From an uncultured Gammaproteobacteria bacterium (GTDB lineage: Bacteria > Patescibacteriota > Microgenomatia > UBA12405), in assembly GCA_964463925.1 (NCBI GenBank), contig CAYXDV010000002.1, forward strand, positions 19 to 64,018: a stretch of 64,000 nucleotides of DNA, in the 5' to 3' direction. The notes beneath the pieces are model-generated. The model was not told the DNA's origin, did no database searches, and worked only from the letters and a program-made list of their open reading frames with translations. Shown here in pieces: positions 1 to 64,000 of this stretch (its first letter is position 1; each line of letters opens with the position of its first letter). Both the position numbers and the translations under genes were made by a program.

Positions 1-29
1 ACTCTTAATCTTCCCCTTTGCAATCCATT

Positions 30-8952: not shown

Positions 8953-9781
8953 TTCTGCAAACCATTTTTATAAATTCTGGTAAATTTTTCCATTGCCTTT
9001 TGGCTCTGGCTGGGTCCAAAGCTGCAGAAAACAACCATTCCATCCCTAGTCTTCTAACCCATTTGGGAGCTCGAATCACTTTACCTGTATAGTAGTCAAA
9101 ACTTCTACCGACTCCCACAACTACTCCAGTAGGTAATAAAGCAAAACTTTCTTCTATCCACAGTTCCTGCTTTTTCATACCCAAGGCCACAAAAAAGATC
9201 GCTTTTTTTAATTTACCATTTTTTTGCAAGTTTTTTAAAAAATCGTCTGTTGCATACCCTCCAACTATTAGTTCGGGATATTTTTTAAGAAACTGATCAG
9301 CTACTTTCTCGGGCTCCCAACCACCCCAAAAAAATACTGGTATTTCGTTTTCACTTGCAATTTTTACCAAACTATCCACCAAATCTACACCAGTTATCAA
9401 TCTGTTCCTGTGTTTGCCTGCTATAAAAAACATCCCTAGTCTACTAATTTTTTCAGACAAACTTTTTACTTTACCAACGACGTCAGCAGCCCACAGCAAG
9501 CCAACCCCATCCACCACATTGTAAGTCGTCTTTTCTTTTAAAATCTGAAAAAATCTAGAATCTCTTCTCGACTCAACCACAAATTCTGGATTTACAGTGG
9601 CCACCCAAACTTTTTTATCTGCTCTCAAGTCATCAACCAACCGAATTAGAAACTGATCTTTTGTCCCAGTCCAGAGTCTAATTCCAAATATTTCCACCAC
9701 CAATTGTAACAAACCTACCTTATGGCCCGCTCGTATACACTTAGATTTTCGTAAATAATCCCGGCCCCACGGATCGTACAC
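8921..9781 (-). CDS. WecG/TagA/CpsF-family glycosyltransferase (GT26)
   Basis: VWVATVNPEFVVE, VVDGVGLLWA and the C-terminal YYTG...RAP...EW segments are typical of TagA / N-acetylmannosaminyltransferases. Confidence 0.7.
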   Translation of the reverse strand: MYDPWGRDYLRKSKCIRAGHKVGLLQLVVEIFGIRLWTGTKDQFLIRLVDDLRADKKVWVATVNPEFVVESRRDSRFFQILKEKTTYNVVDGVGLLWAADVVGKVKSLSEKISRLGMFFIAGKHRNRLITGVDLVDSLVKIASENEIPVFFWGGWEPEKVADQFLKKYPELIVGGYATDDFLKNLQKNGKLKKAIFFVALGMKKQELWIEESFALLPTGVVVGVGRSFDYYTGKVIRAPKWVRRLGMEWLFSAALDPARAKRQWKNLPEFIKMVCRNENRNSGLAG

Positions 9782-51316: not shown

Positions 51317-52618
51317 ATGGTCAAAATAAAACATTTATCTTTGGTGTTTATTTTGTTATTAGGCCTATTACTTCGTTTTTATCTAGCTACCCAATCCTTT
51401 CATGTAGATTTACTTATCCAAGCTGGTTGGGGAGAATATGTCGGAAGCATAGGAGCAATTAATCTCTACGAACACACAGAATGGATTTTTTCCTGGCCAA
51501 ATCATCCACCGCTAATTAATCTGTTTTACGGCCTTTCCTACCAAATCTATATAAAACTTTTTTACTTTCTACCTCGTACCGCCCTTTATCTACACAACCA
51601 TCCTTTATTACCACCCACACTAGTCGATCAATATACATCTTTTGCTTCTTCCTTTACTACCGACCTAAGTCCCAGTCAGCCTTTTCCTTTCGGCTTTCTT
51701 CTTTGCCTAAAATTATGGCCTATCCTGGCTGACCTTTTGCTCTGTCTTGTTATTTATTTTTTTGCCCAAAAATTCTCCCGTCATGGGTTTTTCTTTGCCA
51801 TTTTATATCTCTTTTCTCCTTTTGTTTTCTATCTATCTTCTGCTTGGGGACAAACTGATCAGCTTGGTTTTCTACCAGTACTACTAAGTGCCCTTAGTTT
51901 GAACTCCGTACCCATTTTATCGCTTCCTTTACTTTGGCTTGGAATTTCTCTAAAACCCACGGCTCTACTTTTACTCCCATCCTTTGGGCTACTCTACTCA
52001 AAATACAAAATTCCGCAAAAGTACGTATTTATTGGTGTTCTATTTTGTTTTATTTTTACTTACCTATACACCCACCCATTTACCAACCAACCTGTTTGGC
52101 CGTATCTGATTCACGAGATCATTCCTAAGGTTTTTAATCGAGGTGAAGGTCGGCTCACTACCAACTCTTACAATTTCTGGCATATCGCCACCCTTGGCCA
52201 ACCAGTTTCCGACTCAATTGTCTATTTTCTTCTACCTAGCAAATATTTCAGCTATTTTTTTGTTATTTTTATTCATCTATTTGCCTGGTTAAAAACCAGA
52301 CACTCCAAAAATATTTTCTCAATCCTAACTTTCCTTTTCATTACTTCAGGTGGTATTTGGATATTTTCTAGCAACATGTTAGATCGGTATTTTTTCCCAG
52401 CGCTGATTTTTGGCTTATTTATTTCTATCCGTAAACCAAAGCTATTATTTTTTTGGTCGCCCCTGTCTCTGATCTTTCTACTTAATCTGACCCGCGGTTA
52501 CTGGTATCCAGGGCCACTAATCCATATTAAGGACCTGTTTGAGAAACAGCCACAGCTAGAAGTCATTCCAGCAATCCTCAACACTGTTTTGTATACAATC
52601 ATAGCCACATTAGCCTAA
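51317..52618 (+). CDS. polytopic membrane protein, GT-C-fold glycosyltransferase-like (ArnT/PMT-type)
   Basis: More than 10 hydrophobic helices with Trp/Tyr/Pro-rich loops. Assignment by architecture only. Confidence 0.4.
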   Translation: MVKIKHLSLVFILLLGLLLRFYLATQSFHVDLLIQAGWGEYVGSIGAINLYEHTEWIFSWPNHPPLINLFYGLSYQIYIKLFYFLPRTALYLHNHPLLPPTLVDQYTSFASSFTTDLSPSQPFPFGFLLCLKLWPILADLLLCLVIYFFAQKFSRHGFFFAILYLFSPFVFYLSSAWGQTDQLGFLPVLLSALSLNSVPILSLPLLWLGISLKPTALLLLPSFGLLYSKYKIPQKYVFIGVLFCFIFTYLYTHPFTNQPVWPYLIHEIIPKVFNRGEGRLTTNSYNFWHIATLGQPVSDSIVYFLLPSKYFSYFFVIFIHLFAWLKTRHSKNIFSILTFLFITSGGIWIFSSNMLDRYFFPALIFGLFISIRKPKLLFFWSPLSLIFLLNLTRGYWYPGPLIHIKDLFEKQPQLEVIPAILNTVLYTIIATLA

Positions 52619-52664: not shown

Positions 52665-53762
52665 TTATTTATATAATACCTTCTTGCCGGTATTTACCAA
52701 TCCTAGAGATATTTTTCTCTTTGGCACATCAATAGACTCAATGTAAACTTGAACTTTTTCTCCATCGTGTAGCTCCACTCCCCCGTTTAGTTTAGATATG
52801 TGAACCAAACCTTCAACGGCAGTTTCCAATCTTACAAGAGCTCCATAAGCAGCCAAACGAATGACTACACCTTCGCATTCTTTATCCTTTGGATATTTTT
52901 CTTCGATACTTTCCCATGGATCATTTTTCAATCTCTTAACAGAAAATTGCAATCTACCTTCATCTTTATTAATTAATTTAACTTGAATTTTGTCCTTTGC
53001 CTTATACATGGTTTGAACATTATCAACTTTTTCCCAGGAAATCTCACTTATGTGAACCAAACCCTCTAGCTCAAATTTACGATCTGATACTTCTGGATAA
53101 ATCTTTACAAATATCCCAAATGGTTCCACACGAACAATCTCCGCTTCTAAAATACTTCCTATTTCTATCTTATCAATAGCGCTAAATTCTTCACCAACTT
53201 TTTCTGGTTCAGAAACCAATCTTTCAGAAAAAACCAATCTGTTTTTTGCTTGATCTACTTCCAACACTTTCACCTTAATTTTCTTACCTAGCATCTTTTC
53301 CGGATCATTGTCATATTTGCTTCCAATCTGAGATCCAGGTATGAATCCAAAAAAGCCAAATGGGGCCATAACCACTGTGCCGCCTCGATTCAACTCACGT
53401 CCAGTCACTGTAAGTTCACCTCCTGACTTCAATTTTTCTTCAAAATACTGCCAACCAAACCCCATAGCAGCTCCTCGAATTGAAACCAAAATCTGACCGC
53501 GATCGTTTTCAGGATGTTTAACCAAAACTTCTATCTCATCACCAAGCTTCAAATCGCCTATAAAATCACGAACATATTCTAGCTCTTTTCCCATCACAAC
53601 AGCATCAGTCTTACCGCCAATATCTATAAATACACCTTTATTTTTAATTGCCGTTATTTTTCCCTTAACTGTCTGACCACTTTGTAGACCAACTGCTCCA
53701 ACCTCAGCACTAGCCAATAACTCTTCCATGCTCAAAATACTCTTTTTACTAGTTTTTACCAT
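52665..53762 (-). CDS. rpsA: 30S ribosomal protein S1 (four S1 domains)
   Basis: Repeated S1-domain motifs (GxxVxGxVxxIxxxGxFVxL). Start placed at MVKTSKKS (53762), since the track's upstream extension runs into the rRNA terminator hairpin. Confidence 0.8.
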   Translation of the reverse strand: MVKTSKKSILSMEELLASAEVGAVGLQSGQTVKGKITAIKNKGVFIDIGGKTDAVVMGKELEYVRDFIGDLKLGDEIEVLVKHPENDRGQILVSIRGAAMGFGWQYFEEKLKSGGELTVTGRELNRGGTVVMAPFGFFGFIPGSQIGSKYDNDPEKMLGKKIKVKVLEVDQAKNRLVFSERLVSEPEKVGEEFSAIDKIEIGSILEAEIVRVEPFGIFVKIYPEVSDRKFELEGLVHISEISWEKVDNVQTMYKAKDKIQVKLINKDEGRLQFSVKRLKNDPWESIEEKYPKDKECEGVVIRLAAYGALVRLETAVEGLVHISKLNGGVELHDGEKVQVYIESIDVPKRKISLGLVNTGKKVLYK

Positions 53763-53821
53763 AAAAAAATCCCCATTTACTCGGGGATTTGAAAATAAAT
53801 GAATAATAAAAACTGCACTTA

Positions 53822-53943
53822 GTTCTGGCCGCGACCTATCTTCGGCACCCCGTTGCCGGGGCACTATTGTCAGCGCTATCGTGTTTCACGACTCTGTTCG
53901 GAATGGGAAGAGGTGGTACCACAGATGCTCTGGCGACCAGAAC
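53822..53943 (-). rRNA. rrf: 5S ribosomal RNA
   Basis: The reverse strand reads GTTCTGGTCGCCAGAGC...CCCATTCCGAACAGAGTCGTGAAACACGATAGCGC...GGTCGCGGCCAGAAC. This is the 5S helix I/III/IV/V pattern, about 122 nt. Confidence 0.85.
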
Positions 53944-56370
53944 AAAATGCAGTGTATTTGTTTGACCAATTATTAAAAATTTAACAACTTGAGTAAGCTG
54001 CTTGAAATGAAACTAAAAAATAGTGATTCGATCTTGCCATCGCTTAGCTAAAACTCTTACGAGCCTTCCACCTGCAACGTATCAACCAGTAGTCTCCTGG
54101 CGATCTAATGATGGTTCCTTATCTTAGGGTCAGTTTCCTGCTTGAGATGCTTTCAGCAGTTATCTAATAGAAACGTGGCTACCCAGCATTGCACTTGAAA
54201 GCACAACTGGCACACCAGGGGTTTCCTCATCTAGGTCCTCTCGTACTGTAGATGAATCCCTTCAAGAACCAAACGATTATAGAGGATAGAGACCGAGCTG
54301 TCTCACGACGCTCTGAACCCAACTAACGCAGCGCTTTAATGGGCGAACAGACCAACCCTTGGCCCCTTCTTCAGGGCCAGGATGCGCCAAGTCGACATCG
54401 AGGTGCCGAACCCTGTCGTCAATGTGAACTATCGGACAGGACTAGCCTGTTATCCCCAGAGTAGCTTTTATCCAGTAAGCCCGTGCCCAAACCAATTGGG
54501 TCACGAGGATCACTAAAACCGTCTTTCGACCCTGCTTCCAAACTCAAAATTGGTTGGAAGTCCGCCTTACGGCGGATTCGACCTGTTTGTCTCACAGTCA
54601 AGCCAGCTTATGCTTTTGTACATACAGTCCGATTTCCTGCCGGACCAAGCTGACCTTTGTATACCCGCGTTACCTTTTAGCAGGTGCCTGCCCCAGGCAA
54701 ACTAGCAACCATACACTGTCTCCCCGTTTTTTCGGGGGTAAGACTCGCATGCAATCAAGGGAGGTGTTCCATTGTCGCCCGAAGGCTCCCTCCTACACTC
54801 GACAATAAAGGCATACTCATCAATGTAAAGATCCAGTAAAGCTTCATGGGGTCTTTTTGTCCTTCTATAATTAAACGGCATCTTCACCGCTCTTTCAATT
54901 TCGCTGGATGGATGATTAAGACAGTTACACGGTCGTTAACTCTTTCATACGCGTCGGAACTTACCCGACAAAGGACTTCGCTACCTTAGAACAGTTAGAG
55001 TTACTGCTGACGTTCACGAGGGCTTGTAAACAAGGCTCAACCTTGCGGTATCACCCGGCTTTTTAACCTTCTCGCACCGGTCAGAGTCCAGCCCCTATAC
55101 TTCCCCTTACGGGTTTGCAGAGACCTGTGTTTTTGGTAAACAGTCGCCGTGTATTCTTTTGTTGTAGCCTCGATAAATCGAGGCAGGGCATCTCGTAGAC
55201 TTACGCCCAGCTAATTTGCCAAGTTCCTTAACCATCCTTCTTCCAATCACCTTGGTCTACTCGACCAACCCACCAGTGTCGGTTTACGGTACGATTACAT
55301 TTTTATCTAGTTACTACATTTTTTTCAGACGCATGGATCGCAATACTCCCAAGCTTACGCCTAGTTGTATTCATAGCTCGCTTTAAAACGGTAAACCGGA
55401 TTTTCCTAATTTACCTAGCTAAACTTCTTTAAAAGTCGAATTCAGATCGACTCTATTGCTACCACACCCCGTCCTGCTATAACTTAAAACGATAAAAACG
55501 TAGGACCGGAATATTTACCGGTTATCCATCCACTTATCTACCATTACAGTAGCTTCATGTTAGGATCGCCTTACCCGCAGTCGATAAACGTAGCTGCGGA
55601 AACCTTGGGTATTCGGTGGCCTGGATTCTCACCAGGCTTACGCTACTCATGTCTGCATTCTCACTTCTAGCCACTCCACCAGCCCTTACGGACCAACTTC
55701 ATCGCAACTAGAACGCTCTCCTACCAGATGTCCGCCAAAGGCGGACAAATCTCCAATTTCGGCACTATGCTTGAGCCTCGTTACATTTTCGGCGCGCAAT
55801 ACCTAAGTAGACCTGTGAGCTATTACGCTTTCTTTAAAGGATGGCTGCTTCTAAGCCAACCTCCAGGCTGTCTAAGGTATCACACTTCCTTTCCCACTGA
55901 GCATAGATTTAGAGGCCTTAATTGAGAGTCCGGGATCTTCCCCTTTTGTCTAACCAGCTTAGCCCGGCTAGACTGACTGCCACGCTTAGATGTATGGTAT
56001 TCAGAGTTTGGTTAAACACCAGTCCTTGCGAACTAAATGCTCATCCAGTAGCTTTACCCCCACACATAAACACGTGACGCTATACCTAAATATATTTCGG
56101 AGAGAGCCAGCTATCTCCGGTTTCGATTGGCATATTACCCCTAACCACAGATCATCCGATACCTTTACAGCGGTAATCAGTACGGGCCTCACCCCGATTT
56201 TCGTCGGGGGTCACCCTGCCCATGGTTAGCTCAACCGGTTTCGGGTTAACTGCAACCGTCTATTCGCCTTATTCAGACTCGCTTTCGCTACGCCTACTCC
56301 GCCTTAGGCGGATTAAACTTGACGGCAACAATCACTCGCAGACTCATTCTTCAATAGGCACGACATCACC

Positions 56371-56510
56371 CATGTCCAACACTCGAAATCTAGACATTCA
56401 AAACAAAATAAATTTTTTCGAGAACGTCCCCGCAGCGTAGCGAGGAAGTCCGGCGAGAAAAAATTACGTTTTGTTTTGAAATAAGTTTAGGTTTCCAGTG
56501 TCAGACACAG
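56371..56510 (-). repeat. 23S rRNA intervening sequence at the helix-25 position (hairpin with conserved 17-19-bp base stem)
   Basis: rRNA-sense TGTGTCTGACACTGGAAAC...about 100 nt AT-rich with a GC-rich core...GTTTCGAGTGTTGGACATG. It sits between the conserved GAAACC...ACAAGC and CCTATTGAAGAATGAGTC flanks that correspond to E. coli helix 25. Confidence 0.55.
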
Positions 56511-56905
56511 GCTTTGTCTGTTTGTTAGCATATGGTTTCAGATCTATTTCACTCCGGTAACTACCGGTGTTTTTCACCTTTCCCTCGCGGTACTAGTTCA
56601 CTATCGGTCCGCCAAAGTATTTAGCCTTGGAGATTGGTCTCCCCAGATTCCTACGGGATTTCACGTGCTCCGCAGTACTCAGGTACCAAACCATACTTTT
56701 ACTAGTTTTCGGATACGGGACGTTCGCCCTTTTTAGTCGACTGTTCCAAGTCGTTCTCCTGACTTTCAAAGTAATTATGTCTGGCCCTACAACCCCTATC
56801 TTGCGATAGGTTTAGGCTCTTCCGTTTTCGCTCACCGCTACTGACGGAATCTTTTTAATTTCTTTTCCTCCGGGTACTTAGATGTTTCAGTTCCCCGACT
56901 TACCC

Positions 56906-57049
56906 AGCTGTCCAACACTCGAAACTTGTTATACCTATTTAAATTTACGAAATAACTAATTTTTCGCACGCAATCATGCACGGCGCGTGAGTACAAAAAA
57001 TTATGTTATGAGTAAAAATTTAAATACAAGTTTCCAGTGTCAGACAGCT
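56906..57049 (-). repeat. 23S rRNA intervening sequence at the helix-9 position, homologous termini to the helix-25 element
   Basis: rRNA-sense AGCTGTCTGACACTGGAAAC...about 105 nt AT-rich...GTTTCGAGTGTTGGACAGCT. It sits between CCGAATGAGGAAAC...ATGGAAGC and GGGTAAGTCGGGGAACTGAAACATC. Confidence 0.55.
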
Positions 57050-57324
57050 TCCATAGTATTTCTACTACAGGAGTTTCCTCATTCGGACATTGTGGGATCA
57101 CAGCTTGTAGACAGCTCCCCCACACATTTCGCCGTCTTCCGCGTCCTTCATCGGCTTTGGCAACCAAGGCATCCACCATATGCTTTATTTCAATATTTTC
57201 CAGCTTATTTCAAGCAACTTAATTAAGTTGTCAATTTTCTTATATTAGTCAAACAAATTGTTAAAGTACAAATTATATTCAAAAAACCTAGTTTTCGACC
57301 AGGCTTTAGAGAATATAACCAGTG

Positions 57325-57397
57325 TGGACCTAAGGGGACTCGAACCCCTGACCCCCTCATTGCAAATGAGGTGCTCTACCAACTGAGCCATAGGCCC
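57325..57397 (-). tRNA. tRNA-Ala (anticodon TGC), immediately upstream of 23S
   Basis: Reverse strand GGGCCTATGGCTCAGTTGGTAGAGCACCTCATTTGCAATGAGGGGGTCAGGGGTTCGAGTCCCCTTAGGTCCA. The G3-U70 pair typical of tRNA-Ala is present. Confidence 0.85.
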
Positions 57398-57403
57398 TCG
57401 CAC

Positions 57404-57440
57404 CCCATTATTATACCTAAAAGAGCTATATAAATAAAAA
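57404..57440 (-). promoter_or_regulatory. candidate promoter of the tRNA-Ala/23S/5S transcript (perfect -10 TATAAT)
   Basis: The minus strand reads ...TTTATT(-35-like)...N17...TATAAT, then 12 nt to the tRNA 5' end. The -35 is weak and AT-rich. Confidence 0.35.
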
Positions 57441-57462
57441 AGCCGAAGCTTTTTGCTTCGGC
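57436..57462 (-). terminator. rho-independent terminator of the GH18-like gene (minus strand)
   Basis: GCCGAAGC-AAAAA-GCTTCGGC hairpin followed by TTTTTT on the minus strand. Confidence 0.55.
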
Positions 57463-57568
57463 CATAAGACATTTGTTTTTAGATCAACAATAGTTTATGT
57501 GTATACATGCCGAAGTTTTATAGGTGAGGCCATTTTAGCCCAGAAAACACCCCAAGTCAACGAGGTAG

Positions 57569-58612
57569 TTATTCCAATAATCTGGCTAATTTATCTCCGA
57601 ACTTACCTTCATACCCCAATGCCCACCAAGCCACACCTCCATAACCATATTTTTCTACCCGACCTATCTTTGCCATCAAGCTTCGTTCGTTTTCAAAATA
57701 GATTTGCCTAATTTGCGATCCCAATTTATAAACTAACCAAGGAGTATCTGTAACCTCATCGTAATTTACTTTGATTTTCCAGTTGTTTTTTAAAAAGTCT
57801 TCCATTCTACCCAGGCTGGCCAACATCCTCACACTTCGGGGATGGAGTATTGAACCAAAATCAGTGGTTTTAGTTCTCCATTCATACCCATACAAAGGCA
57901 GGGCTACCACCAAACGTCCTTTATCTACTGGCAACTGATTTACTCTTTCAAATATATTTTCCAAATCTACCCCAGCCTTGCCAGCCAATGGAGCCACTGG
58001 TCCAGCTAATCCAGAATCATAAAAATCATAGGCCATAAAGACTACCCTATCTGTTTTTTCAAATAATTTTTTTAGTTTGCCGGCATCACCTTTGTATAAG
58101 GTGTTTCCAAAAACATCAACCGACAACTCCCCGCCTATCCGCGATCTTAAAACTGATAAAAAGCTAAAATAACTCTCATCGAGTATGGCTGTGGGGCTCT
58201 TTTGATATTCAAAATCAATATTAAACATATCTGCTCCAATTTTCTTCTCCAGTTCACTAGCCTGTCTAAAAAATACTTCCCAATAATCTTTATTAGTTAA
58301 AAACTTATCTAAATCCTTGTCTTTTAACATACTAAAAACCACACCAACTTTCCCACCTTTATTCCTAACTATCTCACTTTGTTTTTTAAAGGATTCTGAA
58401 AAAATTCTACGACTAGCAAAGTCCCACTGTAAGTTGCCATCGCCTTTTACTGGCACCGAAAAAAAGAAAAGTTTGTCCACCAAATCTACTCTAGGATTAT
58501 CAGCTAATCTCCAGTTAGGCAAAAATCCCCACTGTTCTGTCTTGGCAAATATTTCTCCACATGCAGTCGTCAAAAACAAAAATACAAAAAACAATGTTAC
58601 TTTCCAACTCAT
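57569..58612 (-). CDS. secreted glycoside hydrolase family 18-like protein (chitinase/peptidoglycan-hydrolase-like TIM barrel)
   Basis: Signal peptide. GADMFNIDFEY resembles the GH18 DxxDxDxE catalytic motif. The C-terminal YGYEW...GGVAWWALGYE resembles the GH18 end. It lies between tRNA-Ile and tRNA-Ala. Confidence 0.65.
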   Translation of the reverse strand: MSWKVTLFFVFLFLTTACGEIFAKTEQWGFLPNWRLADNPRVDLVDKLFFFSVPVKGDGNLQWDFASRRIFSESFKKQSEIVRNKGGKVGVVFSMLKDKDLDKFLTNKDYWEVFFRQASELEKKIGADMFNIDFEYQKSPTAILDESYFSFLSVLRSRIGGELSVDVFGNTLYKGDAGKLKKLFEKTDRVVFMAYDFYDSGLAGPVAPLAGKAGVDLENIFERVNQLPVDKGRLVVALPLYGYEWRTKTTDFGSILHPRSVRMLASLGRMEDFLKNNWKIKVNYDEVTDTPWLVYKLGSQIRQIYFENERSLMAKIGRVEKYGYGGVAWWALGYEGKFGDKLARLLE

Positions 58613-58650
58613 TTATTCATCCTACGTAGTTTTCCTTTGATAGTCAATTG

Positions 58651-58724
58651 TGCGCGAGCATGGACTCGAACCATGGACCTCAGTCTTATCAGGACTGCGC
58701 TCTAACCAACTGAGCTACACGCGC
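58651..58724 (-). tRNA. tRNA-Ile (anticodon GAT)
   Basis: Reverse strand GCGCGTGTAGCTCAGTTGGTTAGAGCGCAGTCCTGATAAGACTGAGGTCCATGGTTCGAGTCCATGCTCGCGCA. There is one U-U mismatch at 6-67. CCA is not encoded. Confidence 0.75.
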
Positions 58725-58773
58725 AATTACTGCTATTCTACCAGCCAAACCTCCCAAACTCTAGACAGCTGAA

Positions 58774-60366
58774 TTAATACTTCTGTGCTTGCCGTTCACT
58801 AAGGGTCAATTTCAACAAATTCAAATCCTGAGCGTTAACAGTACAATTAAAGTCCATATCATAACTTCCCAAATTACTACTACCAAGATTCTTTATCAAT
58901 TCAGCATAGTCCAATCCATTAACCACATCATCACTGTTTGTATCACCTGGCGATAGTGGGTACTTTGAAAAATCAAAAGTTGCTCCAGGAATAATTCTCA
59001 GTTTTCCTTGAAGAGCATTGTAGTACTGACTCTGACCATCTTCACCAAATTTAGTAGTAACTTCCAAGGGACCTCTGACCAAAATAGAAGCGTTATCAAG
59101 TGGGTTTGGCAACCCCTCAGTACTTACAGAAGCTGTATAAACTGCATTAAACAAATCGCATTTATTTTCTGCGTTATTCCAAACACGACAATAATTTCCA
59201 GATTTAATAATTGGTACTTTTTTGTATTCTTTCTCAACTCCAGCTCCTTTAATAATTACATCAACCGTCTGCGGCTTCGCACAGATAGTGGTGGCATAAT
59301 CCATCAAACCAGAAAAACTAAGTTTAAACTGCATATTCCCAGCTGATCCCCCAGTAACTGGTATCGCAACATCTGGAGATATCGACAAAGTAGTATTTTG
59401 CAAACTTGCAGTTGCAGATGCATCAAAAGATGTACCTTTCCAAGCAGTAAATTCGTAATTACCAACAGACATAACTGTAGTATTTTGACTTGAGTCAGTG
59501 TTGGTAAGCTTAATGGTGGCAAGTTCAACATCACCACTAGGTAAAGAAGAGTTGGGAGAAGTTGAGTCTACTCGACGCAAACCATAAATTGAAACAGATC
59601 TATCACTATTCTTTGTAAAACTAGGACTAAATAGCGCAGAATTTACGCTAGAATTACCCATTGAGGATGCAAAAATCCAACCTCCAGCGGCAGGCAGATT
59701 CAAATCTAAAGCATAAGAATCAAATCTCGCATCTTGAGGCACTTTTGCAAAAAGCTTAAAAGATACTTCACTACCTACCTGGGAAACAGGTCCCGCAAAA
59801 AGTCCAAACGTAAAATCCTTAGCACTAGCTGGAGGGGTTGTATTTTTTTTTTGATCGACAAATGTAACTCCGACTAAATTAGTGGAAATTGGCGAAGCCA
59901 CATTAAACTGCGTCAGCATCGTCTCTGTTCCGAAATTTAAATTAGAAGGCAACTGAAGTGGCTTCACTACAACATCAGCAACATGAACTACTCCAGTAGG
60001 AAAATCAGGTGGATCTTTTACTAAATTCAGTCTAGCCACGCCATCGCCAATAGTATTTCTAACTTGTGTTTGAAAAGCAGCAGTTTTTGTAATGCTAACG
60101 ATCCGCAATTTAGATGGATCAAAAGTAAACCTGATGTCCGCACTGTTCATTGGAACATTCAAACTATCTACCATCAATTGCAGAGAAATTTGCTGTCCTA
60201 CTTGTCCCTCGATCTCACCCAATTTATTTCCTGAAGAATCAACAAAATAAACAGAAGCACTACTAGCATCAGCCGACCTTCGCAAATCAGCATTTTTACC
60301 AAGCAACAAGACTGCAGCCGCCAAACCCAAAGCCAACAAACATACAACAACTATCTTTTTGCCCAT
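58774..60366 (-). CDS. membrane/signal-anchored cohesin-domain protein with C-terminal canonical tandem dockerin (scaffoldin/adaptor-like)
   Basis: N-terminal hydrophobic anchor. The cohesin-like segment VGQQISLQLMVDSLNVPMNSADIRFTFDPSKLRIVSI parallels type-I cohesin GDTVRIPV...CDFVYSYDPNVLEI. C-terminus GDTNSDDVVNGLDYAELIKNL...DMDFNCTVNAQDLNLLKLTL, two dockerin Ca-loop/helix repeats. Confidence 0.6.
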   Translation of the reverse strand: MGKKIVVVCLLALGLAAAVLLLGKNADLRRSADASSASVYFVDSSGNKLGEIEGQVGQQISLQLMVDSLNVPMNSADIRFTFDPSKLRIVSITKTAAFQTQVRNTIGDGVARLNLVKDPPDFPTGVVHVADVVVKPLQLPSNLNFGTETMLTQFNVASPISTNLVGVTFVDQKKNTTPPASAKDFTFGLFAGPVSQVGSEVSFKLFAKVPQDARFDSYALDLNLPAAGGWIFASSMGNSSVNSALFSPSFTKNSDRSVSIYGLRRVDSTSPNSSLPSGDVELATIKLTNTDSSQNTTVMSVGNYEFTAWKGTSFDASATASLQNTTLSISPDVAIPVTGGSAGNMQFKLSFSGLMDYATTICAKPQTVDVIIKGAGVEKEYKKVPIIKSGNYCRVWNNAENKCDLFNAVYTASVSTEGLPNPLDNASILVRGPLEVTTKFGEDGQSQYYNALQGKLRIIPGATFDFSKYPLSPGDTNSDDVVNGLDYAELIKNLGSSNLGSYDMDFNCTVNAQDLNLLKLTLSERQAQKY

Positions 60367-60369
60367 ATT

Positions 60370-61674
60370 TTATTGATGAACAATGGTGTTTGCCCACAAT
60401 TGGTAATCAGCTAAAGTAACTTTTCCATCACAATTAAAATCTCCTTGCCAATGGTCAGATTGCTGACTCCTGGCAACTCCAGCAGAGCCGTTTGTTTGAA
60501 AATATTCTCCGGCCCACATTGTGTAGTCAGTGTTATTTATCAGATTATCGCATGCATTCAAACTAACCGAATAAGCATTACCTGCAGATCTTGGTGGCTG
60601 CTCTGAAGTACAAATTCTACAAACTCCCACTCCAGTAATTGGGACAACAGTACTAACAGGTGCGGTTGGTATCGGGGAAGCAGGGGGCGTTGTCGGTTCT
60701 GAACCAGCAGGAGGTACACACTTCCAAACCTTACAATTCAAATCGCCTTTTGTAGAAATAGTCTTCATTACTGAAGTCCATCCGGCGGGACATTGTTCTC
60801 TACACAAAGCAAGTTTTGAACCTGGGTCAGTCGAGTCAGAACAACCAAACTGAAGAGTACTGCATGCAGGAACGGTATAGGTCGACCCAAAACACGAACT
60901 CACCGATTTATTTAAGCAATAATTATCATCACCCACTTCAGAGCCACTACATGACCCAGATGGTTTAGTGCAATTAGTTGGGGGATTGGTCGGAGGCACA
61001 GATGTCGCCGAAGGAATTGTTGGTTCCGGGGCCACTGATCCAACTGGATCAACACCTTTTATATTGATAGTGGTTTTACCAGAGGCACTAGTGCTAATTG
61101 GTTCAGCCACAGAACTACCCACATATCCCACATTACCACTAGACAGGGATAAATCTGTGCTAGTGTTAGCCCCACTTTTAATCCTAAAATAATACCCAAC
61201 CACATATACTTCCCCTGGATTTTCTACTCCTCCTGATGCCGTCGAGACGCCTGTAAAATCAATGGTTCCCGAAGAAGAGGTATTTTTTACCACCGAAGTA
61301 GTATCCGGATCAAAGAACAAAGTATTGGTTGCTGTTACCCCACCAATAAGGTTAGTTCCTGGTCTTAGGGCATATCCTATCGCCGAAGCACTTTGTGGCA
61401 AAACTTCTAGTTTAGAAGCATCGTATTGCATCCTAAATTCCACAGCAGTTACTTTCTTGGCCGTTTCTCCGGCTCCTGGAAGAGGAGGACTAATTTTTAC
61501 ATATACCAAAAAGGTATCCCCTACTGATCTGGTAACCGATTCAGGAAAAAACAGCAACCTGTTCTCTCCACTATAAGCACTTTTCTGTAAATTCTGATTT
61601 TTGTTTAATAGAACAAATCCAGCTAGTAATCCAGACAGCAACAATGCCAAAGAAACCACTTTTACTAATTTCAT
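60370..61674 (-). CDS. anchored cohesin-domain protein with Thr/Pro/Cys-rich region and C-terminal single dockerin-like repeat
   Basis: N-terminal TM/signal. The cohesin-like VGDTFLVYVKISPPLPGAGETAKKVTAVEFRMQYDASKLEVL. Pro/Thr linkers and many Cys. C-terminus GDFNCDGKVTLADYQLWANTIV. Confidence 0.55.
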   Translation of the reverse strand: MKLVKVVSLALLLSGLLAGFVLLNKNQNLQKSAYSGENRLLFFPESVTRSVGDTFLVYVKISPPLPGAGETAKKVTAVEFRMQYDASKLEVLPQSASAIGYALRPGTNLIGGVTATNTLFFDPDTTSVVKNTSSSGTIDFTGVSTASGGVENPGEVYVVGYYFRIKSGANTSTDLSLSSGNVGYVGSSVAEPISTSASGKTTINIKGVDPVGSVAPEPTIPSATSVPPTNPPTNCTKPSGSCSGSEVGDDNYCLNKSVSSCFGSTYTVPACSTLQFGCSDSTDPGSKLALCREQCPAGWTSVMKTISTKGDLNCKVWKCVPPAGSEPTTPPASPIPTAPVSTVVPITGVGVCRICTSEQPPRSAGNAYSVSLNACDNLINNTDYTMWAGEYFQTNGSAGVARSQQSDHWQGDFNCDGKVTLADYQLWANTIVHQ

Positions 61675-61694
61675 TATCTAAGATAACCATATTC

Positions 61695-62588
61695 TCAACC
61701 CTCCGTCAACAAGGAAACTATGGCCTTTGCTACATTTATGCCAGTACTTTTTTCAAATCCCTGAAACTGACATTGCCGGTTTACTTCCAGCACATAGCTC
61801 CTGCCATTTTCATCTTTCATAATATCTACGCCACAATAATCCAAACCTACTACTTTGGCTACTTTTTCAGCAATTTGTCTATCTTCTTCACTCAAATCAT
61901 ATTTTTCCACTGCCCCGCCCAAACTAAAATTACTTCTAAATTCGCTCCCCACTGCCATCCTCTTCATTGCTCCTAAAACCTTACCCCCAATCACAATTAC
62001 GCGTATATCCCATTTTAGACTTAAATAATCTTGCCATATGTGCATTCCCAGTTTGATCTCATCCATCTTATCCAAGCGCATCAAAAGTTCCTGTTCATTG
62101 TTTAGCTTTCTGACACTCCTTCCTTGAAATCCACGATCATGCTTTACAATCACAGGGTAAGAAAATTGGTATTTTTTAACCTGCTCTTTTGTATAAAAGA
62201 TCCTGCTTGGTACTACTGGTATTTCGTTTACCACATATACTCCATGCTGAGCTATTTTTCCCATTCTTTCCCATTTGGTATAGCTATCTCCGTTACAGCA
62301 AAAAACTCCTTTTTCTCTTAAAACTCTAATCATGGCTGCTCGTCCAATTGGGTATTTGCCAGTTTTTGTTCCAGCCACCCTGAACCACAAACCAAAAGTA
62401 TTTTCTGCACTTACTTTTTCCCCTCCCACCAAAACTTCTGCTTGGTTATTATTCAGTTCCAATTGCATTTCCCGATAAGCAGCGTGTCGAGCTAGCACAC
62501 CCATTTTTTCCGCCTCCTCCAGTACCCTAGCCACCTCATACCCTCGACGTTTATTGTTCATTGTAAATAATAAGATTTTTTTATTCAT
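61695..62588 (-). CDS. RimK-family ATP-grasp ligase (alpha-L-glutamate ligase-like)
   Basis: ATP-grasp segments YPVIVKHDRGFQGRSVRKL, VIVIGGKVLGAMKR and YVLEVNRQCQFQGFEKSTGINVAKAIV match the RimK/LysX pattern. Confidence 0.8.
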   Translation of the reverse strand: MNKKILLFTMNNKRRGYEVARVLEEAEKMGVLARHAAYREMQLELNNNQAEVLVGGEKVSAENTFGLWFRVAGTKTGKYPIGRAAMIRVLREKGVFCCNGDSYTKWERMGKIAQHGVYVVNEIPVVPSRIFYTKEQVKKYQFSYPVIVKHDRGFQGRSVRKLNNEQELLMRLDKMDEIKLGMHIWQDYLSLKWDIRVIVIGGKVLGAMKRMAVGSEFRSNFSLGGAVEKYDLSEEDRQIAEKVAKVVGLDYCGVDIMKDENGRSYVLEVNRQCQFQGFEKSTGINVAKAIVSLLTEG

Positions 62589-62591
62589 ATA

Positions 62592-63518
62592 CTATATATA
62601 GTATAAATTTTTAAATAATTTAATTATTTCTCTAGGTACATCAATCCCTGTCGCCTGCATAAAACCTTTAAATTGAGGTCCTCTATTCACTTCCCAAAAC
62701 ATTGGCTTGTTCAGATTATCGTCTTCAAATACCAAATCTACCCCTGCAATTGCCAAACCGCAGGCACTAGCCGCCCTAACACACAAGGCTTTGGCTTCCT
62801 CACTTATCCAAGCTACTTCTACTTTTCCTCCCCTGGAAAAATTATTTCTAAATTCTCCCTCCACCTGCCTACTTCTTTTCATAGCTCCAAGTACTTTATT
62901 ACCCATTACAATTACTCGATAGTCTCCATCATTTTTTATATACTCTTGGGCCAAATACCTGCGCCCATCGTTAATCTCGCTAACTCTAAGCTCACGCACT
63001 AGTTTAGTCAATTCTTCTTGATTTTCCACTTTATACACACTCCCGCCTCGGTGACCGCCACTACCTTTTATGATCATCGGAAACCCCAAATAGGCAGCTG
63101 CTTCCCGATTTAAATACCACAAACTACCATATAGAGTTTTGGGTATCGGCAGCCCTGCCCGACTCAGGGCCAACATCTGGTAAGCTTTACAGGCATCTGT
63201 TGGTCTTGCTTGTTCGACTATTGGGTCAATTACAATCTTCTTTAGCCTTTTTGCCTCATCAACTATCCAAGATACTTCTTGCCAGTGTTTTTTAGCCGTA
63301 CGAATAAATATCAAATCAAAATCAGCAATGGTAAATTCCTTTTGATTTCTGGTTGATTTAGTTAACCCATCACGCAACATTACCTTAGCTTCTTGACTAT
63401 TAAAATAAATTCTATTGTAAGAAAAAAGCTGCAAAAAGACATCTTCTTTTTTAGCTGCTCTTTTTAGCTCCACCAAATGGTTACTGAGTTTTCCTCCATA
63501 AAATACAGCTATTTTCAT
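62592..63518 (-). CDS. RimK-family ATP-grasp ligase (second tandem paralog)
   Basis: FPMIIKGSGGHRGGSVYKV, VIVMGNKVLGAMKR and FWEVNRGPQFKGFMQATGIDVPREII. Confidence 0.8.
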   Translation of the reverse strand: MKIAVFYGGKLSNHLVELKRAAKKEDVFLQLFSYNRIYFNSQEAKVMLRDGLTKSTRNQKEFTIADFDLIFIRTAKKHWQEVSWIVDEAKRLKKIVIDPIVEQARPTDACKAYQMLALSRAGLPIPKTLYGSLWYLNREAAAYLGFPMIIKGSGGHRGGSVYKVENQEELTKLVRELRVSEINDGRRYLAQEYIKNDGDYRVIVMGNKVLGAMKRSRQVEGEFRNNFSRGGKVEVAWISEEAKALCVRAASACGLAIAGVDLVFEDDNLNKPMFWEVNRGPQFKGFMQATGIDVPREIIKLFKNLYYI

Positions 63519-63922
63519 ATTTTTTTTGTTTTACCAACTAATTTCTTTTTCTTCTTTGGTCCTTTAAGTTTAACCACAAAACCTCTTAGATCTCTTCTTC
63601 CAATCAAGAATTTAGTCTTTAATTTCCCTCTTGGAGCAACACCGACCTGTCCACGTACTAACTTACCAGCTAAATAAAAAGTTACTCCAACAACCGGTCT
63701 GTCAACGTCTCTTCCCAAGGATGACCTAAAATGCCTTGTATACAAAACTTTGTCTGGGTTTAACAATTTTAATTTCTCTGCCAAATCTCGATCAATTGAA
63801 CTACGATAAGCACCTGTATCAATTTTAGCTCTAACTGGAACTACCTCTTTTTTCTTCCTGCCTATTTTTACAAGTATTCTTTCGATTGGTTTTACTACCA
63901 CTACCTCTTTTTTTGGTTCCAC
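63515..63922 (-). CDS. retropepsin-like aspartic peptidase family protein (the RimK-associated 'ATP-dependent Zn protease' family), basic C-terminal tail
   Basis: AKIDTGAYRSSID carries a D-T-G-A active-site-like motif. This family is typically encoded next to rimK. The ORF stays open upstream to the window edge (GTG start assumed in the track), so the true 5' end is uncertain. Confidence 0.6.
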   Translation of the reverse strand: MEPKKEVVVVKPIERILVKIGRKKKEVVPVRAKIDTGAYRSSIDRDLAEKLKLLNPDKVLYTRHFRSSLGRDVDRPVVGVTFYLAGKLVRGQVGVAPRGKLKTKFLIGRRDLRGFVVKLKGPKKKKKLVGKTKKI

Positions 63923-64000
63923 ACTTTCTATTCTTTCTCCAAATAAATATCTGGCAACATTGTATGCATGTCCAACACTTTTTGGAACAATTCCTTCAAC

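Follow-up and report, generated by a model that had tools for sequence, protein, structure and literature searches.

A probable stand-alone 23S-5S rRNA operon with its own predicted promoter and leader hairpin at a split rRNA locus of a Shapirobacteria-like CPR bacterium

How are 23S and 5S rRNA genes transcribed at a locus that has no 16S rRNA gene and in which a protein-coding gene separates the two spacer-type tRNAs? The question arises from the 64-kb stretch of DNA analysed here (referred to as the window). Rfam, ARAGORN and Pfam searches of the whole window gave the minus-strand order tRNA-Ile(GAT), a 347-aa GH18 gene, tRNA-Ala(TGC), 23S, 5S and a short S1 gene (Table 1). This confirms the gene order of an earlier note on this DNA, including a tRNA-Ile that stands alone and a GH18 gene placed between the two tRNAs.

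Table 1. Features of the 23S-5S locus in order of transcription; coordinates refer to the window
Feature	Coordinates	Strand	Basis or remark
Predicted extended -10 promoter of tRNA-Ile, TGGTAGAAT	58735..58743	-	sequence; 10 nt before mature 5' end
tRNA-Ile(GAT)	58650..58724	-	ARAGORN + Rfam, 69.4 bits; orphan spacer-type tRNA
Predicted GH18 promoter, TTGACT-17-TAGGAT	58619..58647	-	promoter scan, 9/12 match; -10 ends 6 nt before ATG
GH18-family glycoside hydrolase, 347 aa	57569..58612	-	PF00704
Predicted rRNA-operon promoter, TTGACT-17-TAAAAT	57532..57560	-	region's best promoter-like site, 10/12; starts 9 nt past GH18 stop
Inferred rRNA leader transcript, ~125 nt	57398..57525	-	alignment with L012 and L005
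CTTCGGC, copy of hairpin 3' arm	57509..57515	-	possible antiterminator partner of GCCGAAG (57462-57456)
Terminator-like hairpin, GGCCGAAGC-AAAAA-GCTTCGGCT + U-run	57436..57463	-	scan (hairpin + T-run at 57463-57441)
Leader boxA-like motif, GCTCTTTTAGG	57416..57426	-	after hairpin
TATAAT of the earlier note	57410..57415	-	sequence; 12 nt before tRNA-Ala
tRNA-Ala(TGC)	57324..57397	-	ARAGORN + Rfam; first gene of rRNA operon
Spacer boxA, TGTACTTTAACAATTTG	57254..57270	-	14/17 identical to E. coli rrnH leader boxA TGCTCTTTAACAATTTA (from L092)
Pre-23S processing helix, 5' strand	57202..57258	-	duplex with 3' flank
23S rRNA, 3185 nt	54015..57199	-	Rfam 2265 bits, model positions 1-2925 (full model)
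Pre-23S processing helix, 3' strand	53956..54014	-	duplex with 5' flank
5S rRNA	53823..53941	-	Rfam 66.4 bits
S1-leader element: CATTTATTTTC, hairpin AAATCCCC-GAGTAAAT-GGGGATTT, U-run abutting ATG	53763..53801	-	scan (hairpin + T-run 53790-53767)
Short ribosomal protein S1, 365 aa	52665..53762	-	PF00575 x4

Based on the analyses below, we consider it very probable that the locus is the 23S-5S operon of a split rRNA locus in a Shapirobacteria-like CPR bacterium, that it comprises several transcription units, and that the operon promoter lies upstream of the leader hairpin. The host assignment draws on the source names of homologs and on synteny, not on phylogeny. In the proposed model, an ancestral 16S-Ile-Ala-23S-5S operon would have become several separate transcription units, with the 16S gene located elsewhere. 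The first would be tRNA-Ile, transcribed from its own extended -10 promoter, and the second the gene of the GH18 cell-wall-type glycosidase, whose mRNA, started at TTGACT-17-TAGGAT, is probably leaderless. The third would begin at the near-consensus TTGACT-17-TAAAAT directly past the GH18 stop codon and would contain a leader with a hairpin, U-run and boxA-like motif, then tRNA-Ala, a second boxA near-identical to that of E. coli, 23S enclosed in a processing helix, and 5S; GH18 transcripts would end at the same hairpin inside this leader. The fourth would be rpsA, behind a conserved leader hairpin and U-run that would also form the end of the rRNA operon in this compact genome. The leader hairpins may be attenuators. 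We infer the roles of these motifs (promoter, terminator, antitermination site) from their sequences, positions and conservation.

The pattern TTGA[CT]N-16..18-TAnn[AC]T was found in 43/43 loci and in 0/43 shuffles, and it lay upstream of the hairpin in every one of the 39 loci that have the hairpin. About 45 further metagenome contigs with the order promoter, tRNA-Ala, 23S were retrieved with the rRNA promoter pattern. For the window's own clade, a three-way alignment of the window with L012 and L005 was used, in which the leader starts with the clade-conserved CCTCACCTATAAAACTTCGGC (57529-57509). We therefore place the conserved rRNA promoter, as predicted from this motif, at 57560-57532, with a predicted transcription start near 57525. 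The claim of the earlier note that the 23S-5S unit has its own promoter is thus borne out by a conserved motif, at a different site from the one it had proposed.

As this putative promoter lies upstream of the hairpin, the hairpin and its U-run would belong to the rRNA leader, and the proposal that they are the GH18 gene's own intrinsic terminator is not supported. The hairpin is kept whichever gene precedes it. It is present in 39/43 loci, 49-123 nt (median 100) past the -10 element; RNAalifold found eight pairs, three of them with compensatory changes, and it is the sole CCGAAG...CTTCGG hairpin in the window. Probably it also stops GH18 transcripts, and RNA polymerase starting at 57525 would have to read through it. 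One would not expect a strong look-alike of an intrinsic terminator so soon (about 62 nt) after an rRNA promoter.

According to the earlier note, the hairpin (57463-57441) is the GH18 terminator, and transcription of 23S-5S starts at TATAAT (57415-57410), with a leader of ~6 nt before tRNA-Ala. We regard this as rather unlikely. The TATAAT is perfect and follows a canonical hairpin and U-run, a promoter scan gives a weak TTTATA-16-AATAAT there (9/12), and the tandem promoters of E. coli rrn operons leave place for a second promoter. However, the site is not kept in the closest relatives (the aligned positions of L005 and L012 differ from it, the readings being GGTGGAT and GGTTTTT), and six genomes, with the hairpin ending 9-20 nt before tRNA-Ala, have no room for a promoter. 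Moreover, the -35 is poor, a start there would exclude the conserved boxA-like motif from the transcript, and a far better, universally conserved candidate promoter lies upstream of the hairpin. In the window species the TATAAT may be a genuine second promoter, though at best a lineage-specific, secondary one.

It also seems unlikely that an independent small-RNA gene is made up of the promoter, the ~90-130 nt behind it and the terminator hairpin, with tRNA-Ala-23S-5S expressed only by read-through or from an unrecognised promoter. The tightly conserved promoter-to-terminator distance and the conserved 5' segment (CCACTT..ATGCT for the main clade and CCTCACCTATAAAnCTTCGG for that of the window) would suit such a gene. 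On the other hand, RNAalifold revealed no conserved secondary structure in the leader besides the hairpin, and no aptamer-like fold; the leader matches no Rfam family; the segment is rich in A and little conserved in its middle; and in several genomes the essential rRNA genes have no other promoter. In practice, this explanation merges with the leader/attenuator model.

Within the segment, read as an rRNA leader, CTTCGGC is a possible antiterminator partner of the hairpin. Its duplex with GCCGAAG has an energy of -12.9 kcal/mol (z = -4.4 versus shuffles), and the heptamer is conserved in L012 and L005, without covariation there; such potential was seen in only 7/36 lineages. Between hairpin and tRNA-Ala, G[CT][AT]C[AT]TT occurs in 29 loci and in none of the shuffles.

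Further downstream, the spacer boxA before 23S is conserved in relatives, and the pre-23S flanks form a duplex of ~58 bp (-54 kcal/mol). The 23S gene itself carries two related stem-loop expansions (56916-57045 and 56369-56511), located by comparison with L010, L008 and E. coli. The following ORF encodes four S1 domains; its best NCBIfam matches are S1 models, at scores below their equivalog cut-offs, and no Shine-Dalgarno sequence precedes it. S1 follows 5S in 21/22 loci, the remaining locus being truncated. The earlier note saw here a 5S terminator hairpin abutting the rpsA ATG. The site is correct, as the T-run abuts the ATG at 53762, but the hairpin corresponds by homology to a conserved one in the S1 leader: all 16 relatives compared have the motif, the hairpin and the U-run ahead of S1. 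The hairpin adjoins S1 even where 5S lies 500-1200 nt away with a promoter between, and in five relatives (L055, L056, L061, L062, L068) a putative S1 promoter lies upstream of the element. In the window genome it probably terminates the rRNA operon as well.

Upstream of the rRNA unit, TGnTAnnnT occurs within 45 nt of tRNA-Ile in 38/50 related loci and in 4/50 shuffles, which suggests that tRNA-Ile is a transcription unit with its own extended -10 promoter. The predicted -10 element of the GH18 gene ends so close to the ATG that a leaderless mRNA is implied, and is probable; relatives show TGnTAGAAT 6-7 nt before the ATG (TAnnnT in 21/63, 13 of these with the TG extension). The protein matches PF00704 (Glyco_hydro_18) with 79.9 bits (cut-off 29.6), carries a hydrophobic or lipobox-like N-terminal signal, and its N131-x-D133-x-E135 is invariant among 28 homologs. 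Its best solved-structure matches are YaaH, YdhD and a cortical-lytic enzyme (E = 4e-25 to 5e-19), and it is probably a cell-wall glycan hydrolase. With the Bacillus spore-cortex hydrolases YaaH/SleL and YdhD (PDB 4s3k, 4s3j, 3cz8) it shares the GH18 barrel and the catalytic D-x-E; it differs from them in the motif DxxNxDxE, in its N-terminal membrane or lipoprotein signal and in giving no Pfam LysM match.

The layout is common to 39 species-level genomes, mostly labelled Candidatus Shapirobacteria. Ile-GH18-Ala(-23S-5S) is carried by 40 sequences, in which Ile and Ala lie 1.25-7.4 kb apart and the additional genes vary. In eight related loci (5/40 of the full-layout sequences), tRNA-Ile is inverted with respect to GH18 and the rRNA genes. 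Since the GH18 gene holds the same position in the 39 genomes at only 32-61 % protein identity, it is not a recent insertion. The arrangement is a normal, lineage-wide and ancient layout, and no artefact.

The unlinked status of the 23S-5S unit has likewise held up. An Rfam search detected no SSU rRNA in the whole window. The earlier note was right that 16S is absent upstream, although its 6.6 kb counts from tRNA-Ala; beyond tRNA-Ile the window holds 5.3 kb. Nor does 16S lie just past the window edge: L003, an independent Logan contig 100 % identical to the window across the overlap, extends 5.9 kb further without rRNA and with seven genes on the opposite strand. None of 80 related loci has a 16S gene within ±10 kb, in a search at settings at which E. 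coli 23S detects 42/44 of the related-locus 23S genes. For the window, 'unlinked' rests on distance, any 16S lying >11 kb away on the upstream side (with opposite-strand genes between) or >53 kb away on the downstream side. That a 16S gene farther upstream is still co-transcribed through the protein genes, tRNA-Ile and GH18 is thus extremely improbable and already largely refuted: the five genes between 58774 and 63922 share the rRNA strand, but the opposite-strand genes of L003, the 80 loci, the inverted tRNA-Ile and the separate conserved predicted promoters of tRNA-Ile, GH18 and the rRNA unit speak against it. There is hardly any chance that the assembly joined unrelated contigs at conserved tRNA genes. 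L001, L002 and L003 do break inside tRNA-Ile or tRNA-Ala, genes that form repeat nodes in the graphs of metagenome assemblies, but L002 covers the 15 nt before tRNA-Ile, tRNA-Ile itself and GH18, L001 reaches from within tRNA-Ile to within tRNA-Ala, and L003 carries the upstream genes and ends within tRNA-Ile. Each of the three matches the window at 100 % identity (L001 and L002 across 58739..57353, so that there is no mis-join at 57400-57570), and the same order recurs in 39 other genomes, some of them with contigs of 0.2-1 Mb.

The leaders and spacers of E. coli rrn operons carry the antitermination signals boxB (a hairpin), boxA and boxC of the Nus-factor system, in boxB-boxA order. The spacer boxA of the window resembles them, as does the placing of its hairpin directly before the leader boxA-like motif; however, a U-run of 6-9 nt behind this hairpin gives it the look of a strong intrinsic terminator, no boxC was found, and the function is a prediction. 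Ribosomal genes are also controlled through their leaders, as in the L4-mediated attenuation of the E. coli S10 operon, and S1 is translationally autoregulated. Both the rRNA unit and rpsA share with leader attenuators the order of promoter, leader with terminator-like hairpin, and gene, whereas the window leader has no conserved aptamer-like fold and antiterminator potential is limited to the 7/36 lineages.

In Borrelia burgdorferi, too, the spacer tRNAs are separated and protein-coding sequence lies within the former spacer, but its 16S gene is a few kb away and its 23S-5S is tandemly duplicated, whereas for the window locus the 16S is >11 kb away or elsewhere. The available part of one survey cites this cluster as decoupled (PMC8172020). 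Separate 23S-5S operons are mentioned, in the accessible parts of the sources, for Helicobacter, Buchnera, Wolbachia, Rickettsiales and Deinococcus-Thermus (10.1101/705046, PMC8172020; H. pylori maturation, PMC6582327). They resemble the window in a 23S-5S unit with its own (here putative) promoter and a processing helix around 23S, but belong to other phyla, and the window keeps tRNA-Ala with 23S and has tRNA-Ile upstream behind at least one protein gene.

The closest parallel in kind comes from CPR/Patescibacteria, for which the available portions of two surveys report unlinked rRNA genes in most genomes (Brewer et al. 2020, bioRxiv 10.1101/705046; Lui et al. 2021, PMC8172020), the latter giving 27/34 circularised CPR genomes and noting that rRNA spacers can hold tRNAs and protein genes. 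In these portions, the loci are classed by distance and strand only, and the orphan tRNA-Ile, resident GH18, promoter, leader hairpin, boxA elements and S1 linkage are not described. Unlinked rRNA in CPR bacteria is already a published kind of gene layout, and the window shares with it a 16S gene set apart from 23S-5S as a conserved, clade-specific trait.

Rfam, ARAGORN and Pfam searches bore out the gene map drawn in the earlier note from the sequence alone, and both sites consisting of a hairpin and a T-run, the TATAAT box and the T-run abutting the S1 start codon were found as it had described them (see the table). The 23S and 5S genes are adjacent, with a gap of 73 nt, and no SSU rRNA was detected by Rfam in the 64-kb window. 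A mis-join at 57400-57570, which would have undone this picture, is excluded, because three independent contigs recovered by exact-protein look-ups are 100 % identical to the window: L001 (Logan; window 58704..57353), L002 (JGI; 58739..57445) and L003 (Logan; 64000..58679, continuing 5,941 nt past the window). A 16S gene located just past the window edge and co-transcribed with the unit is also excluded for at least 11 kb, since L003 carries no rRNA, including in the 5.9 kb past the edge, and its extra sequence contains seven genes on the opposite strand, of which six are T4SS-pilin-like.

Features of the rRNA locus and its immediate surroundings
Feature	Position	Strand	Basis or description
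Extended -10 of tRNA-Ile	58743-58735		TGGTAGAAT
tRNA-Ile(gat)	58650-58724	minus	Rfam, ARAGORN
GH18 promoter, predicted	58647-58612		TTGACT-17-TAGGAT-6 nt-ATG
GH18 ORF, 347 aa, between both tRNAs	57569-58612	minus	Pfam Glyco_hydro_18
rRNA promoter, predicted sigma-70-type	57560-57532		TTGACT-17-TAAAAT
Copy of the 3' arm of the leader hairpin	57515-57509		CTTCGGC
Leader hairpin	57463-57441		9 bp, 6 GC, T6
Leader boxA-like motif	57426-57416		GCTCTTTTAGG
TATAAT box	57415-57410		12 nt before tRNA-Ala
tRNA-Ala(tgc)	57324-57397	minus	Rfam, ARAGORN
Second small hairpin with U-run	~57280-57306	minus	AAAGCCTGGT-cgaaa-ACTAGGTTTTTT
Spacer boxA, predicted	57270-57254		TGTACTTTAACAATTTG
Processing helix of 23S flanks, predicted	57258-57202 with 54014-53956		~58 bp, -54 kcal/mol; RNase III-type stem
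23S, full-length	54015-57199	minus	Rfam
23S stem-loop expansions	56916-57045 and 56369-56511	minus
5S	53823-53941	minus	Rfam
S1-leader hairpin	53790-53767		9 bp, T7
S1 ORF after 5S	52665-53762	minus	four PF00575 S1 domains
433-aa ORF between S1 and RadA	51317-52618	plus	no Pfam or NCBIfam match

No 16S-like sequence was found in the 80 related loci searched, an absence which is meaningful, as a positive control with E. coli 23S and the same settings finds 42 of the 44 23S genes of these loci. When metagenome contigs were searched with the rRNA-type promoter, the 16S of the clade was not located; besides a few tRNA-Leu genes the search gave a single 16S, L164, which belongs to a GC-rich unrelated organism and has a canonical, multi-promoter leader.

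The 80 loci were obtained by a GH18-alignment scan of species-representative genomes, followed by scripted annotation. In 40 sequences (39 genomes and the window) GH18 has tRNA-Ile(gat) upstream and tRNA-Ala(tgc), in part with 23S-5S, downstream, and the GH18 proteins of the layout-sharing genomes are 32-61 % identical to that of the window. A recent insertion of GH18 is therefore not upheld by synteny: the layout, being conserved across related loci, is an old, fixed trait of the clade. Its dimensions vary, from 1,252 nt between tRNA-Ile and tRNA-Ala in the window, the most compact case, up to 7,380 nt elsewhere, and tRNA-Ile is inverted in eight loci. The 11 cases with tRNA-Ile only are all contigs stopping within 1.3 kb past GH18. 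Many GH18 homologs lie on contigs of 1.2-2.5 kb, which is to be expected because the flanking tRNA and rRNA repeats break assemblies; for the breaks at tRNA genes, conserved tRNA sequence common to community members is a simpler explanation than second copies of tRNA-Ile and tRNA-Ala.

GH18 homologs with a source name are labelled Candidatus Shapirobacteria or Patescibacteria, and the more distant ones (Roizman-, Levy- and Beckwithbacteria) show no rRNA linkage. In four Roizmanbacteria-like loci (L072, L074, L075, L076) homologs of 27-29 % identity, likewise not rRNA-linked, are placed between tRNA-Gly(ccc) and tRNA-Thr(cgt). Many loci, among them L012, L017, L019 and L025-L027, are MAG records (TPA_asm) titled 'uncultured Gammaproteobacteria' or 'Pseudomonadales'; on MAGs with a CPR-type locus these titles are evidently wrong.

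The neighbourhood in relatives comprises T4SS pilins, a 7TM-transglutaminase, three ATP-grasp genes and variable surface proteins, followed by tRNA-Ile, 1-7 genes including GH18, tRNA-Ala, 23S, 5S, S1, RadA and Rho. The upstream part in this genome (58774-63922 and L003 1-5941), which relatives have in common with it, encodes cohesin/dockerin-like surface proteins, the 7TM-transglutaminase, an ATP-grasp set of two RimK-type ligases and a third fused to a retropepsin-like domain, and, on the opposite strand, five or six T4SS-pilin-like genes in an array. Between 48000 and 64000 the strand asymmetry is very strong: almost every gene is on the minus strand, and 29 of 32 500-nt windows have a GC skew below -0.1 (range -0.02 to -0.50). 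A similar compositional strand disparity is reported for a Microgenomates genome, according to the title of Kadnikov 2020 (cited in PMC8172020). AT skew at the 433-aa ORF is unusual (-0.35).

Ten loci (L014, L018, L020, L021, L022, L030, L052, L060, L067, L071) contain a MITE-like GC-rich hairpin repeat (...CCTTCGC[C/T]AAGGCTACGG..GG[A/G]TAAA[C/T]C...), located intergenically around tRNA-Ile, tRNA-Ala and S1. In many cases a duplicated tRNA 3' end (GGTCCAC) comes after the repeat. Those parts of the window rRNA region that were inspected showed no copy. L005, one of the two closest relatives, has at ~9520-9550 a duplicate of the tRNA-Ile 5' half (GTGCCTGTAGCTCAGTTGGTTAGAGCG) with a hairpin behind it; this lies ~80 nt upstream of the intact tRNA-Ile and looks like a rearrangement scar.

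That the 23S-5S unit would have its own promoter, as the earlier note proposed, is supported by a near-consensus site, TTGA[CT]N-16..18-TAnn[AC]T, present in 43/43 loci versus 0/43 shuffles. Its position is different from the proposed one. The TATAAT box close to tRNA-Ala is not kept even in L005 and L012, which are the nearest relatives, while the conserved promoter is situated upstream of the leader hairpin in 39/39 loci with a detectable hairpin, its -10 ending 49-123 nt (median 100) before it. In the window it starts nine bases past the GH18 stop codon and, with a 10/12 match, is the best promoter-like site of the region. Used as a search pattern, it retrieved from metagenomes ~45 more units in which the promoter is followed by tRNA-Ala (at +166 to +336) and 23S.

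Further signals of classical rRNA operons were recognized within this unit. A boxA-like motif, G[CT][AT]C[AT]TT..., follows the hairpin in 29 loci versus none in shuffles. The predicted spacer boxA between tRNA-Ala and 23S shares 14/17 positions with the leader boxA of E. coli rrnH (L092), and its pattern matches in 30/43 relatives, a set that includes truncated ones. The flanks of 23S are predicted to form a long processing helix. The second small hairpin occurs directly after tRNA-Ala and upstream of the spacer boxA. The window 23S is ~215 nt longer than those of L010 and L008, and the extra length consists of two related stem-loop expansions, each starting with GTCTGACACTGGAAAC and finishing with GTTTCGAGTG, which map to E. 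coli positions ~130-166 and ~540-552 (helix-25 IVS hotspot); among other relatives 23S reaches ~4.4 kb (L067).

Based on the promoter position, we infer that the leader hairpin lies inside the rRNA leader. It is built like an intrinsic terminator, and 3/8 of its pairs have compensatory changes (RNAalifold); its assignment simply as the terminator of GH18 is not supported, given the promoter upstream of it in all 39 loci. In six genomes it ends only 9-20 nt before tRNA-Ala, which leaves no room for a later promoter, so that the rRNA genes of these genomes could be transcribed only through the hairpin. A generic terminator shape of the genome is ruled out, as CCGAAG...CTTCGG occurs only once in 64 kb. 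An Rfam E-value search of 57190-57600 for a riboswitch or other known RNA gave tRNA only, and RNAalifold of 20 leaders returned the terminator hairpin alone, with no conserved fold upstream of it. A leader mini-ORF (M-P-x-stop) after a GGAGG box, spotted by eye, was dismissed since it did not recur consistently from locus to locus when scanned for systematically, and since the box is missing in the window clade.

Our reading is that the leader hairpin probably both ends upstream GH18 transcripts and acts as a leader element of the rRNA operon. In the latter capacity it might be boxB-like, being 5' of boxA, or it might serve as a partial or regulated attenuator. In the window clade the conserved CTTCGGC could pair as an antiterminator; this pairing reaches -12.9 kcal/mol (z = -4.4) in the window, and across lineages z is below -2 in 7/36, with a mean of -0.7. 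We consider it rather unlikely that the leader hairpin is a regulated attenuator and the S1-leader hairpin another, the two being checkpoints through which the output of 23S-5S and S1 would be set without regard to the unlinked 16S. The candidate sensing element would then be the antiterminator copy of the 3' arm (window clade) or the conserved GGAGG box (main clade), and the signal sensed might be free 30S subunits, the NTP level or a ribosomal protein. To our knowledge, bacterial rRNA operons have no established attenuator of this sort.

The S1 gene follows 5S in 21/22 loci, the remaining contig being truncated. In every relative compared, the S1 ATG comes directly after an element made up of the sequence TTTATTT[G/A]GGGTAA[C/A]CAATCCC, a variable hairpin and a U-run (L010, L016, L020, L021, L029, L036, L040, L047, L055, L056, L060-L062, L067, L068 and L081; window 53763-53801). 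This conservation is argued from a per-sequence listing, as MAFFT/RNAalifold could not register the variable hairpins, and the S1 leader matches no Rfam family. The element is kept even where 5S is 500-1,200 nt off and other ORFs intervene; a TGnTAnAAT promoter is located just upstream of it in L055, L061, L062 and L068, and L056 also has a separate upstream terminator before the S1 promoter. The hairpin called a 5S terminator in the earlier note does end on the S1 ATG and has intrinsic-terminator anatomy, but its reading as such is not supported: because the element adjoins S1 even away from 5S, the window hairpin is homologous to the S1-leader hairpin of relatives. In this compact genome, where 5S and S1 are 60 nt apart (versus 110-1,230 nt elsewhere), the hairpin probably has a second role as terminator of the rRNA operon. 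The S1 ATG has no Shine-Dalgarno sequence. The best NCBIfam matches of the ORF are 30S S1 models, below equivalog cut-offs (e.g. 240 versus 524 bits), and such scores would fit a short, four-domain S1.

Upstream of the rRNA promoter, tRNA-Ile and GH18 have signals of their own. An extended -10 lies 10-25 nt upstream of tRNA-Ile in 38/50 loci versus 4/50 shuffles; a strict hairpin detector, applied there as a control for the canonical order of terminator before promoter, picked up too few hairpins to be informative. When the first gene behind tRNA-Ile is GH18, TGnTAGAAT stops 6-7 nt short of the GH18 ATG, and a leaderless mRNA is therefore implied. Such starts were noted in the window, L014, L019-L021, L024, L029, L031, L034, L047, L058, L067 and L068, operon-internal copies carrying a GGAG-type Shine-Dalgarno sequence instead, and leaderless initiation may be common in the clade.

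The GH18 protein matches PF00704 over profile positions 5-316 of 317 (79.9 bits versus a gathering score of 29.6). Where GH18 enzymes have the catalytic DxxDxDxE motif, it reads D-M-F-N131-I-D133-F-E135; the catalytic D-x-E is invariant, but the middle Asp is Asn in 28/28 homologs. Conservation within the family is good. The closest solved relatives are the Bacillus cortex-lytic enzymes YaaH, YdhD and cortical-lytic enzyme, which suggests a secreted or membrane-anchored hydrolase of cell-wall glycan. Conserved synteny is the simplest explanation of why the gene is linked to the rRNA locus.

The new element of these results is a conserved blueprint of split-operon organization in one large CPR clade, which includes the predicted driving promoter, the retained classical boxA and processing-helix signals, the former spacer turned into a variable gene slot with GH18 as its fixed resident, and tRNA-Ile, GH18 (leaderless) and S1 as separate units. 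It is of help for the annotation of CPR genomes, in which spurious ORFs and wrongly assigned terminators are frequent, and in designing primers for rRNA-operon amplicons, which will fail here. The one feature of the locus that may be new biology is the conserved placement of terminator-like hairpins behind the promoters of the rRNA and S1 genes.

Since most CPR lineages are already known to have 16S apart from 23S-5S, unlinkage alone adds little. Unlinked rRNA genes are defined by more than 1500 bp between 16S and 23S (Brewer et al.) or by more than 2000 bp with intervening opposite-strand genes (Lui et al.); here, 23S and 5S are adjacent, no 16S occurs within 1.5-2 kb of 23S, and the intervening genes preclude co-transcription. 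Patescibacteria are listed by Brewer et al. (10.1101/705046) among clades with exclusively unlinked rRNA genes, and among the circularised CPR genomes of Lui et al. (PMC8172020) 27/34 are unlinked, with tRNAs and protein genes noted in the spacers. The locus is a lineage-typical unlinked 23S-5S operon of this known kind.
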